Shown piece by piece: positions 1 through 12,000 of a stretch of DNA of 13,091 bases. Position 1 is the first letter of the stretch. Each line of letters starts with the position of its first letter. This DNA is from Fidelibacterota bacterium (GTDB lineage Bacteria > Fidelibacterota > Marinisomatia > Marinisomatales > UBA2128). Made by a program: the position numbers. The stretch lies in NCBI GenBank assembly GCA_046861645.1, contig JBHHUM010000060.1, positions 1 to 13,091 of the forward strand. The letters are read 5' to 3'.

Positions 1-3000
1 ACATTGGCATCGAATGCCATGAGGTTACTCAGGCGGATTTCCAATTTCTCCATTGTAAAACCAACTATAGATAGAGTACCGGCAGTACCTAAAAGAGCAT
101 AGGCTAATTCCTGACCAGCTTTCGTACCGGACATCTCAAAGATCTTCCATTGATTCGCAGGTGCTCCCATCTTGCCACAGATTTCCTTGACGTGCTTCTT
201 AATATCACGGATATTCATCCCTGTGGTGTTCAGAGTTTGGGATATACCCACCTGCTCCAGTTGATCTAATTTCTCCTGAGCTATGTCCAGCGCAAGCACG
301 TACGCGCCGGATACCTTCGCCAGTTGTACAGCGTAGATGCCTACACCTCCCACACCTATCACTACTGCAAAATCCCCGGCTCGAATTCCACTTTTTATCA
401 TCGCCTGATAGGGTGTCGCTACGGCATCGGCAATAACTGCTAACTCAGCCAGGGTATGGTTCTGAAGGGGTTCCTCAGGAACCTCAATCAGGAAACGGGC
501 AGGAACAATCACATGACTGGCGAAGCCACCATGGAAGTCATTACCAGGCATCTTCTGGTGCTGGCAGATATTGCTTCGATTTTGACGGCACAGGTCGCAA
601 TCGCCGCAGGGAAGTACGGCCGGAATGATGACGGGTTTTCCTGACAGATCTGACGGACCCTCCAGTACAATTCCACTGATTTCATGTCCCAGCGTCAAGG
701 GTAAGTCGTGACGTGTCGGGACATCATAAAACCAGAAACTGAGGTCAGTGTGGCAAACGCCACAACCAGAAACTTTGATTAGGGCATCTCCCTCCTCTAA
801 GGAGGGTAGTGGTCGTTTGGTCAACTTGAAAGATTGACCCTTATTCACCATTTGCCAGGCTGAAATGGTATCCATTATTCTACCTGCTTTATGCCGTCGG
901 ATTTTCGATCAATATTGCGGTACCCTGTCCACCACCGATACAGGCCGAGGCTATCCCATAGCGAGCGTTTCGACGGCGGAGTTCCAGCGCCAGGGTATGA
1001 GTCAGTCTCACTCCTGTCGCTGCCAGAGGGTGTCCGATAGCAATCGCCCCGCCATTAACATTCAGTTTACTTCGATCCAGATGCAATTCTCTCTCCACGG
1101 CAAGAATTTGTGCTCCGAAGGCTTCGTTGACTTCAAAAAGGTCAATATCCTCCATAGTTAAACCGGCTATTGTCAAAGTGTTAAGAATGGCTGAAACAGG
1201 ACCGATACCCATGATTTCGGGCTCGACCCCGGTAGAAGCCGAGGAAATTATCCGTGCCAATGGTTTAATTCCTTTGGTTTTTACCAAGTCTCCAGAGGAT
1301 ATAACGACTGCCGCCGCACCATCCACGATCCCACTGGAGTTACCTGCGGTCTGTACGCCATCTTTCGCAAAGGTGGGACGGAGGGCGGCCAGTTTCTGCC
1401 TGTCAGTGGGACGAATATTTTCGTCCGCATCCAGCATTGCTTTACTTGGTGTTGTTTTATATTTACGTGTTTTTAGAGGATTCATCTCATGGCTTCCCGA
1501 TGCTACAGACACCATTTCCTCCATCAATGTGCCGTCTGTAGTTTTTTCGGCCGCGAGGGCATGTGATCGATAGGCATATTCATCTGCTTCATCTCGGGTA
1601 ATGTTGTACTTCCGGGCCAGGTTTTCTGCAGTTTGTCCCATGGAACAGCTCACAGCAGGATCGTACAGACCTTCCCACAGCATGTCGCCAAAATGGAGCC
1701 CACCCAACCGGTATCCGGTGCGGTTGCCAAAGGAGGCCGTTGGAGCCAGGGTCATATTCTCCGCTCCACCAGCTAAAATGACCTGGGCTTTACTTAGGGT
1801 GATCTGTTCTGCGGCAGTAATAATTGTTTCGAAACCGGAACCACAAATTCTCTGTACGAGCTGGGCCGGGACGCTTTGTGGGATTCCGGTGTAGAGGCCG
1901 ATGTGTCGCGGTAAGTAGATAGCATCGAAACTGGCTTGAATAATGTTAGCAAAGACGACATGTTGAATATCCTTAGGTTCTAAACCCGATCGTTCTATAG
2001 CAGCCTTACTGGCGATGATCCCCAAGTCGGTAGGTGAGATTCTCCCCAGTGTACCACAAAATTTACCAAAGGGAGTCCGCGCTCCTTCCAGGAGATAAAT
2101 ATCGGCGTATAGTTGCCCGAATTGATGTTTAGTGTTCATGTTTGGAAAGGATGTTTATTTCTGGTTCTAAGCTGCCATTATTCCGGGCCAGAGCAGCTGC
2201 ACCCTGAGCGATGACGAATTGAGGATCAGCGCTGACGGTGATCTTTATACCGAGTTCTGCTCCTAAGAGTTCGCCCAGAAAAGGATGGTAAGCGATGACC
2301 CCCCCACAGAGGAATAGAGGTAGACTACTATTTACGGGTAGCTTACAAATTCGATTAACAATGGAAAGATAAATTCCCCTGGCGATTTCTTCGAGGGGTA
2401 CTCCTTTGAATTTCCATCCCATGATTTCTGTCTTGGCAAAAACAGTGCAAAAGCTGTTAATCGTTTTGTCCGTTGTGGTTCGTTGAGCAAAATCATTCAT
2501 CTCCGTGATATCCAATTCAGCCTTTTCAGCAATTTCGGTGATGAAGGCTCCTGTGCCGGCAGAACACTTATCGTTCATGTAGAAATTTCTTACTTCACCA
2601 CGGGGTCCACTCTCAATAATCTTGATGTCTTCTCCGCCTATATCGAGAATTGATTTGTGGATAGGATGCAACACAGAAACTCCTGCAGAAGCACAGACAA
2701 GTTCAGTCTTTTTAATGTTACCCTGATAGCTGTTGCGGCCGTAGCCAGTTGTGCAGGTTTTCTTGATCATATATCTACTTTGGAGGTAATCGATGACATC
2801 ATTGAAAGCTTCACGATGCCGACTGAGTGTAGGAATTACTTTCCTGAAAACTGGATTACCATCCTGATTGATAACTACAAACTTTGTGTAGGAAGAACCG
2901 AGATCAATTCCCAGATAGTATACCGCTGCTGACACGTAAGCTCGCTCCCTATTCTCCTTTATGTTCTAAAAGATTGATCAAAGTCGTAATGGTTTGATTA

Positions 3001-9000: not shown

Positions 9001-12000
9001 CTGACAATATTTCGTCATCTACTTTGATGGATTGTCGCTGTTCGAGCATCTGGAAAAAGGAATCAAGCCTGTTTTTAATATTGGAATAAGAGTAGTACCG
9101 GGGATCTACCAGATCAGTTTCGATAAAACCGACGGGGATTCCCAGGCGATCTTCAAGCTCTCGCATTATCACTAACTGTCCAGCGGAGAAGGAGTTGCAA
9201 CTTTTAATGGAATTTACCAGCAAACCATCTGCGTGGTAGCGCTTTATGAATCGCTCCAGAAGATCGATACGCTGAGGAAGATTACGGTTGGTATAGCAAC
9301 CCAGACAGTATTCCGCCATGCTACTGAGTGGATTGTCTGCAGAATGTCTGAAACCGTCATCATAGACACCACCAACCCGGGTGTAAGTTGACCCTACGAA
9401 AACAGCTCCCTGGTCATAAAAGATCTTCCAGAAATTCCTGAAATGTGTCCAGTTAGGTGGGCCCTCGACAACGAGGCGAAATCGCTCGTTTTCCAAGTAA
9501 CCATCGGGAGTGATAGGGCCGAGATTGTTGTGGATTCGGTAGGTCACCTCTTTTGCTAATTCTCGGTAGTATTCAACACAACTCTCATTGCCCCGAAATG
9601 CGGTGAAGATGGGTCCAATATAATAAACTCCACCAAAAAACGCATCGATGGGAGAAGGCTGGTTTTGAGCGGAGTCGAATATTTCAATTAACAGGTCTTC
9701 TGCCTGAGCTGATAGATCCATTTTTTCAGCAAGTTTCTCGAGATGAAATTTTTTACCACTTACCTTCTCCATTTTGGGGATCACTTCCTGGATAAGCTGG
9801 TTCACGATATAATCAACCGCATGGGGTTCTATTTTACCTGATTCCTGATAGGGTATATGTAACATGGCAATTTCAGAATGGGGGTAAAGGTGCTTCAGGT
9901 TCTCGAACCACTTCATAAAGACAAAACAGCCGGTATAGCTCAGGAGGAGGAGGTCGGGGTCAGGGAGCTGTTGGCCGGTGGGACCGATATTGCCCTGCAG
10001 CATCATGCCTATATCGCACTTGACGTAGGAACAGACATCCTCAGAATAGCCCAGGTCCTCTGCCTCGCGAATGTAGTCTCTCGATTTTTTGCGCATACCG
10101 GACTGGAGAGCATTGATTTCCGGGTAGACCGGGAGCATGTCGAAGGTATAGATGAGTTCCGTGAGGTTGCCGGGGACGAAGGTATAAACTACTTTTTTAC
10201 CTGTTTCTCGAACCTGGGAGAGATCCATGAAATGCTCGGCTAACATCTGCTTTTGCTTGATCATGCTGTTCTCTTTTTGAATTTCCATGATTATTCCCAC
10301 AGTTTGATCATATCGGCGAAAGTTCCAGTCTGCTCTTTGATGACATGGAACTGTCCAAGATTCTCATGGTATTGAAAGCTGGAATGTTTGATTTTGTGTC
10401 GGTCCATGGCCTTTTCCAGGAGGGGACGATCCAGCAGGGCTGGGTCACAGAAGCTGGGTGCACAGAAGATCACTCCGTCAGCATGGCGATTCTTTACCTG
10501 AGCAGCCAGGAGGTCTCCTTTTGCTTTTTGTCCCTCATAGACAGCAGAGGAGAAAGTACTCAGGGTCAGGTAACTGTCCACCAGTGCAGCTACAGGATCG
10601 TCTGTGTCTTCCGGAATATTTTCAGCAAACCAGTTAAGTCCCAATTGCCAATCATCCTCGACAATGTAACAACCAGCATTTTCAATAGTCTTGATCAATC
10701 CCAGAGGAGGTTGCTCACAGAATGAACCGGAGATTACCACCCGGATACGGTCTTCTTCTTCGGCAGCAACCCTGTCTGCCAGCTGGAGAACAGTTTCTAT
10801 AAAGTAGTTGTGATCTTCCACAGACATAATGGTACCGGCTCTCTGGATCAGATAATAATCAGTAGCTGCTATCTTTTGGGGCTGCTCGGACCGGAATTTA
10901 TTAAGTTTTTTTAGGAGGAACCGGTTACGATTGTAAAGGGCGATGGAACGGTTCAACTCATCTTTATCTGGAACCTTGGCGTTCAAAGCCTTGAGGTCCT
11001 TCCTGAGGCGCTCTAATTCAGCAAGGTAGAACTTACCACCCACCTCTGGATTGAAATCCTGAGGGAAGTCGAGGTAACGGATTAGTTTTTTAGGAAAGCG
11101 GATTCTGAAGATTCCAGACAGATTGCGGATAACATCACAGATGGCGGGAAAGATAAAACCATCGAAATCATCTAAATGGTTGTTCAGTGCAAGCTCTACC
11201 ACAGTTCTGGGAAGGTGACAGATGTAAGATTGGAAATAGGCATCACCCCGTACGGAGGGTATCCTGTCTCCAGCTCCAAAGATGCCTACGGGCAGCATTC
11301 CAGCCGCATGGATAATCTCCCGGGGGATATAAATGGGCAGATAACCGATAATCTTCCGAGAAGGGTCACCCTTCTTCCATTGGCTGGCATAGGTAAAGGA
11401 AAGATCATCGAACAACTTCCGTGCGAAGGCTACTGCATCAGTATAGTTGTTGAAGCGAATCTCACTCTTGTCCATTAGCCGCGTTCCAAATCTGGTTTAG
11501 AGTATGGCGGAATGTTTCCAGTTCCTCCGGAGAAAGGGGTTTTACCAGTTGTTGATCCACAGTGGTCGCGATTTCGTCTAGACTCTGGAGTAGATTAGAC
11601 CCTTTTTCAGTCAGGAATAAACGAATTACTCTTCTATCGGTAGTCGTTCTCCTGCGTTCGACGAGATTATCTTTTTCCAGCCGGTCGGCCAATCCAGTTA
11701 TGGCCGGTTTATCCAGAAACACCCGTTTACCCACTTCAGAAAGAGATAGTCCATCTTCTTTGGCCAGGGTGCTGAGTACAGTGTGCTGTGAGGTGGTTAA
11801 ACCATACTGGGACAACTTAGCGTCAAGAGCCTTTTTCATCGTCCGAGCAGTACGGACGACCAGAAAACCAGTACTCTCTTCCAAAGTTGTCATATCTTGT
11901 TGGCTTTCATTTAGGTATTCAGTTCTGCGATAATTGGGCATTGCTGATAACCAGTCAGGCTCTATTTTATCGGTTTTAATAAATATAGTTAACATATTAA

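Follow-up and report, generated by a model that had tools for sequence, protein, structure and literature searches.

What feeds a benzoyl-CoA reductase operon that carries its own 2-hydroxyacyl-CoA dehydratase subunit? We examined this question in the window, a 13,091-nucleotide stretch of DNA from contig C22 of a Marinimicrobia (Fidelibacterota) genome, G000. From marR to had, eleven open reading frames (ORFs) lie on the minus strand with intergenic gaps of -14 to +40 nt. Scores below are quoted as value/cut-off, using NCBIfam or Pfam family thresholds.

11985..12004, no strand: palindrome ATAGTTAA-N4-TTAACTAT upstream of marR, putative MarR operator
11462..11893, minus: MarR-family regulator of 143 aa, read from ATG 11893 (a longer frame, from 12010, stands in the ORF list); PF01047 53.7/24.6
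10291..11475, minus: bcrC, electron-transfer subunit of class I benzoyl-CoA reductase; TIGR02263 440/421
8984..10300, minus: bcrB, catalytic subunit, BCR subtype; TIGR02260 641/487
7645..8943, minus: bcrA-like ATPase subunit; best family TIGR02259, 458/578, below cut-off
6824..7645, minus: bcrD-like ATPase subunit; best family TIGR02261, 278/313, below cut-off
5109..6827, minus: AMP-forming acyl-CoA ligase, long-chain-ligase-like; PF00501 and PF23562, best NCBIfam PRK12582 220/777
3898..5106, minus: HgdD, lone catalytic-type (alpha) subunit of the 2-hydroxyacyl-CoA dehydratase (HGD-D) family; best family HadB 212/750
2949..3896, minus: PanE-family reductase; TIGR00745 171/141
2129..2935, minus: HgdC/HadI-type ATP-dependent activator; TIGR00241 163/125, cysteines in NDKCSAG and SFCTVF
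889..2139, minus: thiolase, an optional operon member; TIGR01930 401/241
3..875, minus: had, cut by the contig end; TIGR03201 358/339 on 290/349 positions

Our best explanation, to which we assign an overall probability of about 0.55, is that the window holds the first half of an operon, under MarR control, for the oxygen-free breakdown of aromatic amino-acid carbon. Phenylalanine and tyrosine would be converted through aryl-lactate, aryl-lactyl-CoA and cinnamoyl-CoA to benzoyl-CoA, by way of a probably homodimeric dehydratase, before the ring is cleaved; gene context is what points to the feeder steps.

The ring-reducing part is the firmest. The scores for bcrB, bcrC and had exactly reproduced those of the initial annotation, and the ligase, HGD-D dehydratase, PanE-like reductase, activator and thiolase that it named were all confirmed by family search. 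BcrB keeps the glutamate and three cluster cysteines: its E61, C90, Y92, C125, Y306 and C368 align with E65, C95, Y97, C128, Y298 and C380 of BzdO, the BzdO key residues being taken from PMC11971306. Columns at BzdO S44-W46 and L302, where the MAFFT alignment is shifted, were left unused. BzdO His131 aligns with BcrB Phe128, and MbdO also has Phe at this position. BcrC cysteines include Cys86, 113 and 343. The BcrA-like protein is a long A subunit with cysteines in NDRCAAG and STCTVF, and those of the BcrD-like protein lie in GQCASG and GICAVL. Both miss their equivalog cut-offs in the window; BcrD of locus L064 passes at 359. The window BcrB reaches no more than 205 bits against MbdO and 82 against BzdO, and a search among plasmids for a named BcrB like that of Thauera aromatica returned matches all under 25%. 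No ferredoxin gene was seen in the window. From its sequence, the window enzyme is in all likelihood a true aryl-CoA reductase. Family scores and residues further suggest that BcrCBAD is very probably an ATP-driven class I enzyme which, with Dch-like, Had and Oah proteins, would open the ring to 3-hydroxypimelyl-CoA.

Relative to T. aromatica BcrCBAD and dch/had/oah (TIGR02259-63, TIGR03189, TIGR03200-01), the system has the same four subunits in C-B-A-D order and retains the catalytic glutamate and cysteines. B, C and Had score over cut-off, as does the Oah of relatives, whereas the window A and D and the relatives' Dch-like proteins fall below. The window also differs in having no benzoate-CoA ligase and in adding a ligase-HgdD-PanE-activator module and the putative MarR operator. 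That palindrome has a single match within the window and none in 200 shuffles. With three or fewer mismatches, it occurs in 20 of 40 marR upstream regions, a set that includes the window itself and more than one locus from the same genome, versus 7 of 800 shuffles. A PDB search with the MarR protein gave no ligand-informative match and no close characterised relative.

The pathway had been described as complete. Its genes and quoted scores are real, but oah, dch and the lower operon are absent from the G000 assembly, and bcrA and bcrD are below cut-off. C22 breaks off inside had at a strain-branch point, and oah and the remaining genes are present in a congener; in congener G099, oah (567/464) immediately follows had. 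Short public contigs extend up to about 100 bases beyond position 1, and none of the other G000 contigs overlaps the C22 end. Neither oah, dch, FadB-like nor HcrA-like genes were found in this assembly (94.5% complete), the sole BCR-type genome of 25 without any oah match. For G000 itself, we infer completeness of the pathway from relatives. Bin contamination as the source of C22 is unsupported: its composition agrees with the bin (GC 0.452; 17 of 54 contigs of similar size lie nearer the mean tetranucleotide profile), and a congener shares synteny with C22 over 12 kb at 74% nucleotide identity.

In Marinimicrobia relatives, oah passes its family cut-off (553-567/464), but the dch-like genes do not (218-234/292, best family TIGR03189). 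The oah-like gene of locus L052 is of a divergent type (208/464). Across the phylum, oah is over cut-off in 35 of the 42 genomes with a reductase; conversely, a class I catalytic subunit is encoded in 35 of the 37 genomes positive for oah. At the level of sequence, the proposal that class I reduction of benzoyl-CoA and ring cleavage are encoded in part of this phylum holds up.

We then asked how the reductase is distributed. bcrB is over cut-off in 25 of 401 phylum genomes from 14 genera, in agreement with the earlier count of 24 of 301 class genomes and 13 genera. The description "Thauera-type" fits these 25 of the 42 reductases, but not the 2 BZD-type enzymes among the 401 genomes or the 15 MBR-type enzymes among 48 carriers searched, which occupy the same operon. 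Whatever its subtype, the reductase follows one MarR, and the genes linked to it are the same: ligase, lone dehydratase subunit, PanE-like reductase, had and oah. MBR (Thauera chlorobenzoica MbdONPQ, PDB 9G87) and BZD (Aromatoleum BzdNOPQ, PDB 8S02) reductases both take the same operon position in relatives, including MBR in G260, a congener of the window's organism. Beside the same module, the MBR-type reductase scores 546 bits to T. chlorobenzoica MbdO and the BZD-type 593/449 for bzdO; the BZD-type operon is headed by a MarR 71% identical to that of the window. Relative to the window, the MBR-type catalytic subunit is 31% identical and its HgdD 76%, and the BZD-type catalytic subunit is 23% identical and its HgdD 51%. 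MBR-linked HgdD is nested among BCR-linked HgdD at two places in a quick tree that carries long-branch warnings at its base; the BcrB tree was built with FastTree only. All three known subtypes, BCR, MBR and BZD, can fill the reductase block. A class II enzyme was considered as a fourth swap and rejected, the AOR-like gene in the G150 operon being nearer AOR (358 bits) than BamB (213).

The cluster is not specific to Marinimicrobia. The eight-gene order bcrC-B-A-D-ligase-hgdD-panE-act is shared by 39 of 79 loci, spread over many phyla. All four module genes are present in 40 of the 79, and at least one is absent within 10 kb in the other 39, in part by truncation and in part genuinely. Earlier papers describe a four-subunit BCR from a Vicingaceae MAG (PMC8470020) and bcrABCD/dch/had/oah from Acidobacteriota MAGs (PMC13170169). 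The ligase, HgdD, PanE and activator genes, listed as extras in the initial annotation, are a conserved module, probably a feeder, and not accessory. Variants exist: G083, G347 and G283 have a divergent HGD-D protein (32-35%) in an operon without an activator gene, and family f22 has reductase, oah-like and had-like genes with the module absent in the loci read. The thiolase lies directly 3' of the activator in about half of ordered loci.

The HgdD model superimposes on 3O3M with Z 49.3 and an rmsd of 1.8 over 390 residues, and S30, E48, C77, Y79, C116, Y286 and C344 are kept in 55 of 55 orthologues. Two extra cysteines, C28 (53/55) and C287 (54/55), could provide further metal ligands and constrict the pocket. 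A search for a separate beta subunit (PF06050), in genomes 88-95% complete, found only three HGD-D genes in G000 (BcrB, BcrC and HgdD) and three in G165 and G237 (BzdN, BzdO and HgdD), with no beta partner for HgdD in G000 or G165. The BzdNOPQ genes found upstream in the latter two rule out HgdD as their sole reductase. A dimer model of HgdD scored 0.73 versus 0.00 for the best control; that mark is attained in 20 of 30 solved homodimers as against 1 of 23 single chains. Contacts agreed at 91% or more, and pLDDT was at least 93. Modelling suggests that HgdD is probably a homodimer, and the score may possibly be owed to likeness with DCCP or HadBC. From gene context, its predicted activity is (R)-2-hydroxyacyl-CoA dehydration.

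HadBC/HadI of Clostridioides difficile and FldABC/FldI of Clostridium sporogenes share with the module a catalytic-type subunit carrying Ser, Glu and three Cys, a homodimeric activator, and a linked 2-oxoacid reductase and CoA-activating enzyme. The module differs in having no beta subunit, an AMP-forming ligase in place of the CoA-transferase and a PanE-family reductase. It would also be tied to oxidation to benzoyl-CoA, not to reduction to arylpropionate.

Under the amino-acid reading, an aminotransferase would yield phenylpyruvate or 4-hydroxyphenylpyruvate, and the PanE-like enzyme would reduce the arylpyruvate to (R)-aryl-lactate. One type of aminotransferase stands beside the operon in 10 of 48 carriers versus 0 of 17 non-carriers, and a HisC-family aminotransferase lies upstream of marR in five loci. 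Operon-linked aminotransferases occur in a minority of carriers. Gene context suggests the PanE-family enzyme as a D-2-hydroxyacid (aryl-pyruvate) dehydrogenase; such dehydrogenases occur among PanE-annotated enzymes (bioRxiv 2024.01.05.573888), and its PDB matches were distant PanE-family proteins only (best 79 bits), with no substrate clue. The ligase, a proposed aryl-lactate ligase by the same context, would form aryl-lactyl-CoA, which the homodimeric HgdD, charged by its own activator, would dehydrate to cinnamoyl- or coumaroyl-CoA. One round of beta-oxidation, using a FadB-like enzyme and thiolase, would then give acetyl-CoA and (4-hydroxy)benzoyl-CoA. A FadB-like orthologue is found in only 22 of 48 carriers and is absent from most MBR-type ones; therefore, this round must use other genes there.

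An HcrCAB-like molybdoenzyme would take off the 4-hydroxyl group. HcrA-like genes occur in 36 of 48 carriers (756-973/995), with 0 of 48 over the TIGR03194 cut-off. This operon-linked enzyme of relatives is far closer to T. aromatica HcrCAB (PDB 1RM6) than to any other structure (614 bits versus 277 for the next family), but its beta subunits are divergent (118-220/405) and it is absent from the G000 assembly. BcrCBAD would reduce the aryl-CoA, with ATP and ferredoxin, to the 1,5-dienoyl-CoA, Dch-like/Had/Oah would yield 3-hydroxypimelyl-CoA, and an SDR, a second thiolase and a decarboxylating glutaryl-CoA dehydrogenase would complete the route. G000 has two CoxA-like genes and one NosZ-like gene, and the organism is probably a facultative anaerobe. 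It also encodes four 2-oxoacid oxidoreductases, two of them KOR-like and all unlinked to the operon, as candidates for the 2-oxoglutarate:ferredoxin oxidoreductase that, with ferredoxin, supplies electrons in the Thauera-type pathway. No IOR was over cut-off in G000, where molybdopterin-family matches were ACIII/Psr-like and complex I only.

A different reading is ordinary benzoate or phenylpropanoid degradation, in which the ligase activates external benzoate, cinnamate or coumarate, with the dehydratase module as a side branch. The best ligase family, PRK12582, is one that we take to be feruloyl-CoA-synthetase-like, and FadB-like, thiolase and HcrA-like genes suit phenylpropanoids equally. 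However, the ligase travels with hgdD, panE and act in rearranged clusters (L061, L069, L118, L119) and is fused to panE in L072. Judged by sequence, it is not a benzoate-CoA ligase, and a PDB search with it gave no substrate clue and no close characterised relative. Because a benzoate-CoA ligase (TIGR02262) is over cut-off in 0 of 48 carrier genomes (best 263/375), benzoate is probably not the entry substrate. We consider this reading unlikely.

It is also rather improbable that the module dehydrates aliphatic 2-hydroxyacyl-CoAs, from leucine or other amino acids in a Stickland-like manner, and is merely co-regulated with the ring pathway. The leucine enzyme HadB is the closest characterised subunit, but HadB Phe39 aligns with HgdD Gly32 and therefore leaves more room, if the residue lines the pocket as we suppose. 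All 38 of 401 phylum genomes with an HgdD orthologue have a class I reductase subunit except G303 and G184, both with cut contigs, and the operon has no enoyl-CoA reductase or ETF.

We doubt still more that HgdD and its activator are a reductase, whether as an additional reductase for aryl- or dienoyl-CoA or as a partial version of a double-cubane enzyme such as DCCP/DCCP-R. Like DCCP/DCCP-R and YjiM/YjiL, HgdD combines one HGD-D gene with one activator and is a homodimer, in its case probably, by model; one subunit with a private ATPase is the DCCP arrangement (PMC7317905). Against the DCCP seven-Cys motif CX19CX18-19CX29CX166-170CX32-34CX32C (PMC7317905), HgdD reads C28-X19-E48-X28-C77-X38-C116-X170-C287-X23-I311-X32-C344. 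The C28 and C287 spacings match two distal double-cubane ligands, but the motif is incomplete, with Ile311 as the sixth ligand and Glu48 at the seventh cysteine, and the catalytic Glu and CoA-ester tyrosines are present. Moreover, HgdD scores 68/350 for the double-cubane family NF040772, its fold is nearer HadB (Z 49) than DCCP (Z 33), and the linked 2-oxoacid reductase would be left unexplained.

Finally, it is highly improbable that the module acts downstream, hydrating glutaconyl-CoA to 2-hydroxyglutaryl-CoA for oxidation to 2-oxoglutarate, which would donate the electrons that the reductase needs. In its favour, the genes immediately upstream of hgdD in BZD-type loci encode 2-oxoacid:ferredoxin oxidoreductases, but a decarboxylating GcdH-type glutaryl-CoA dehydrogenase occurs in 42 of 48 carriers (459 and 419 bits to decarboxylating-type structures versus 205 to 3MPI, presumably the non-decarboxylating type), with both BZD-type genomes among the six without it, so that for these two the reading may still apply.

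The amino-acid reading can be extended, tentatively, to a widespread, undescribed anaerobic mineralisation of phenylalanine and tyrosine in uncultured bacteria, through aryl-lactyl-CoA and cinnamoyl-CoA and not phenylacetate. Its radical dehydratase would be a homodimer of a single subunit, in which the two extra cysteines may hold a double-cubane remnant replacing the beta subunit, and would feed whichever class I subtype a lineage acquired.

The ring-breaking enzyme is of a known kind; beside it stands an uncharacterised enzyme set that would supply it, probably from phenylalanine and tyrosine. If this is true, about a tenth of sampled Marinimicrobia species (42/401) and many uncultured lineages join the oxygen-free ring openers. 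HgdD would give the BCR/HAD family of radical enzymes a single-subunit member open to testing, and one genetic context with three class I subtypes would offer a natural comparison among them. In sediment and vent genomes, bcr, had and oah may mark amino-acid use, not hydrocarbon or benzoate degradation.

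The window is contig C22 of the Marinimicrobia genome G000 (2.51 Mb, 184 contigs, 94.5% complete). Its minus strand carries 11 genes, spaced -14 to +40 nt apart, in the order marR, bcrC, bcrB, bcrA, bcrD, ligase, hgdD, panE-like, activator, thiolase and had. The benzoyl-CoA reductase (BCR) operon proposed by the initial annotation is real. We obtained its scores again (bits/family cut-off: bcrB 641/487, bcrC 440/421, had 358/339). bcrA (458/578) and bcrD (278/313) fall below cut-off, yet these are the best families for each, and both proteins retain the two cluster cysteines. 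The Glu, three Cys and two Tyr named for BzdO in PMC11971306 are all conserved in BcrB, as mapped through the BzdO-type sequence of a relative. The composition of C22 is typical for the G000 bin, and C22 is syntenic with the congener G099 over 12 kb. The four sequencing runs containing the window stretch belong to a single sample from one study and bear the label hydrothermal vent metagenome; this sample may be the source of the window sequence. GC content drops to 0.33-0.37 at window positions 12010-13091, where a plus-strand TPR-repeat gene begins at 12684 and is truncated by the end of the contig.

The reductase chemistry is known; the host group is new. We found no assignment of a bcr operon to Marinimicrobia in passages of PMC11971306, PMC13416013, PMC4846661, PMC8470020, PMC9213671, PMC7317905, PMC8318568, PMC7916938, PMC8166890, bioRxiv 2024.01.05.573888, PMC13170169, PMC12507015, PMC7382037, PMC13691129 and PMC4725000; supplementary MAG gene tables could list some. 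Marinimicrobia MAGs are inferred to degrade hydrocarbons anaerobically in PMC7916938, a survey in which hcr and bad genes were scored. A Vicingaceae MAG is reported to have a four-subunit BCR (PMC8470020), and bcrABCD/dch/had/oah are reported for Acidobacteriota MAGs (PMC13170169).

The pathway had also been called complete, which does not hold for the G000 assembly. A search of its 94.5% complete sequence found neither oah nor dch, and no FadB-like or HcrA-like gene; C22 itself stops within had. In public contigs of the same sample, window positions 32-156 occur as two alleles that differ at about 23 sites, a strain mixture inside had. Several short public records also extend beyond window position 1. 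Together, these observations fit a branch in the assembly better than the end of a gene. The relatives do carry oah after had, as had been claimed: in G099, oah (567/464) directly follows had, and a second contig holds dch-like, FadB-like, SDR and hcr-like genes. Elsewhere in G000, C45:1-2458 (locus L199) encodes a GcdH-type glutaryl-CoA dehydrogenase, cut at its 5' end, and then an aminotransferase with 404 bits to the uncharacterised 3G0T. The same pair follows the hcr-like genes and ends the operon in four relatives (G115, G180, G276 and G303), and C45 may be the far end of the window operon.

G000 encodes two CoxA-like genes (570-575/671) and a NosZ-like gene (498/625; C43:7600-9504), all below cut-off, along with an ACIII/Psr-like complex, HdrA-like genes and many multiheme cytochromes. 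A CoxA-like gene is present in 32/48 carrier genomes. This repertoire fits the occurrence of class I BCRs in facultative anaerobes (PMC11971306). Consecutive multiheme cytochromes with 8, 32 and 17 CxxCH motifs lie at C142:11065-16144.

We investigated how the reductase is distributed in 401 phylum genomes. TIGR02260 scores above cut-off in 25, bzdO in two (a further match is weaker, at 311 bits) and oah in 37. An MBR-type subunit, searched in the 48 carriers picked from the 401 with a query scoring 546 bits against T. chlorobenzoica MbdO, occurs in 15/48 at 72-100% identity to the query. The BCR, BZD and MBR lists do not overlap and total 42 genomes. The label "Thauera-type" covers the 25 BCR-type genomes and needs qualifying for the 15 MBR-type and two BZD-type genomes. 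oah is above cut-off in 35 of the 42; in the other seven it is partial or split (four), divergent (one) or not found (two, G000 and G240). Separately, the reductase at L116 and L117 (G001 and G014; family f22) is of a fourth type, divergent from the others (TIGR02260 427/487) and with a short A subunit. The oah-like and had-like genes there are divergent too, and the locus has no feeder module; G001 has two copies. G199 has two MBR-type operons (L114, L115) whose catalytic subunits are 72% identical, with a FadB-like gene and first thiolase in one and missing from the other.

The cluster is not peculiar to Marinimicrobia. A single-sequence scan, from which the best 80 of 95 confirmed stretches were taken, gave 79 loci in many phyla, with labels including Calditrichota, Zixibacteria, Ignavibacteria, Bacteroidota, Eisenbacteria, Acidobacteriota, Alpha- and Gammaproteobacteria, Bdellovibrionota and Myxococcota. 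Nine of the 79 carry the label Neomarinimicrobiota or Fidelibacterota, and in trees they fall among genomes of the same order; HgdD homologues at 70-75% identity bear these labels too. The BcrB sequences of Marinimicrobia do not form a single clade: a FastTree phylogeny shows 8 changes, 5 or more of them forced, in keeping with lateral movement.

The ligase, hgdD, panE-like and activator genes form a feeder module. All four occur in 40/79 loci, 39 of which have them in this exact order behind bcrCBAD, and they stay together where the cluster is rearranged. Fusions among the loci join panE-act, ligase-panE and bcrD-ligase. An HgdD orthologue of at least 48% identity is found in 37/401 genomes, plus one fragment. 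HgdD is a catalytic-type subunit with HadB as its best family. Its model (pLDDT 92.5) matches HadB with Z 49.3 (rmsd 1.8, 390 residues), and its fold also resembles BzdO (Z 44) and DCCP (Z 33). No beta partner was found in G000, G165 or G237. HgdD is unlikely to share BcrC, because BcrC is replaced elsewhere by subunits only 22-32% identical. When two copies were modelled together, the score was 0.73, compared with 0.00 for the best control (contacts agreeing at least 91%, pLDDT at least 93), a mark reached by 20/30 solved homodimers and 1/23 single chains; this predicted dimer may owe its score to the dimers already solved for DCCP and HadBC. C28 and C287, kept in 53/55 and 54/55 orthologues, match in spacing two further ligands of the double-cubane cysteine motif described in PMC7317905, whereas the sixth ligand is Ile in HgdD. 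The MBR-type operons L162-L164 (G083, G347, G283) carry a different lone HGD-D, 32-35% identical to the window's, and no activator gene; this subunit may borrow the reductase ATPases. L127 and L128 (families f24 and f2) hold canonical beta-alpha-activator dehydratase sets with no bcr genes nearby; the L127 alpha subunit scores 290/750 to HadB.

What might this module feed? No benzoate-CoA ligase scored over cut-off in the 48 carriers. The phenylacetate route is known from denitrifiers. It is not evident in G000, since the genome has no IOR over cut-off and no molybdopterin-family genes besides one ACIII/Psr-like gene and complex I. An HcrA-like gene in 36/48, mostly within the operon, suggests a substrate with a 4-hydroxyl group, for example tyrosine. 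Aminotransferases of two types adjoin a minority of operons. A GcdH-type enzyme is present in 42/48, so a downstream role for the dehydratase is not needed. D-2-hydroxyacid dehydrogenases annotated as PanE exist (bioRxiv 2024.01.05.573888). From these points together we infer a route, and each substrate assignment in it, whereby aryl-pyruvate would be converted to aryl-lactate, aryl-lactate to aryl-lactyl-CoA, aryl-lactyl-CoA to cinnamoyl-CoA and cinnamoyl-CoA to benzoyl-CoA. Counting against it, a FadB-like orthologue occurs only in 22/48, three genomes pair a divergent HGD-D with an operon lacking an activator gene, and the reductase occurs without the module in f22 and at many loci outside the phylum. 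Phenylalanine catabolism has reportedly been studied in Archaeoglobus. The same chemistry, from phenylpyruvate through cinnamoyl-CoA to benzoyl-CoA, is hypothesised for a benzene degrader in a passage of PMC13416013.

Relatives' operons show the following insertions and neighbours:
L165:5841-8140 (G150), tungsten AOR-like gene and Fe-S partner between dch-like and SDR genes; a BamB identity was rejected, the protein being closer to AOR
L120:3617-4228, 6980-7489 and 13535-13990 (G115), three four-helix-bundle genes (TIGR02436) interrupting the operon
L110:353-916 and L113:15822-16385 (two genomes), REP-associated tyrosine transposase-like gene immediately 3' of oah
L172:1321-5719 and L166:2-964, same direction as the operon, carboxy-terminal-protease-like genes between oah and dch-like
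L172:15520-18385, L112:540-5427 and L163:16885-18333, aroC/aroK/aroB, menaquinone genes and TrpB2 adjoining some operons

A shared run, ligase-hgdD-panE-act-(thiolase)-had-oah-dch-(FadB-like)-SDR-thiolase-hcr-like, stands behind a BCR-type block in the window's kin and behind an MBR-type block in L111-L115. On a single contig, G165 has marR, bzdNO (bzdO 593/449; bzdN 424/454, below cut-off), two ATPases, two 2-oxoacid oxidoreductases, hgdD, activator, two ligases, panE, had, oah and dch. Across subtypes, the catalytic subunits are 23-31% identical, HgdD 51-76% and MarR 54-82%. Even congeners differ, G099 being BCR type and G260 MBR type, and in a quick tree MBR-linked HgdD fall inside BCR-linked ones at two supported places. 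The palindrome at 11985-12004 can be recognised by eye upstream of marR in all three subtypes; with up to 3 mismatches it occurs in 20/40 marR upstream regions, which are not independent, versus 7/800 shuffles. Because three characterised reductase subtypes occupy the same slot, that slot very likely serves aryl-CoA reduction. We consider this conserved feeder module with an exchangeable reductase to be the more valuable part of the finding.
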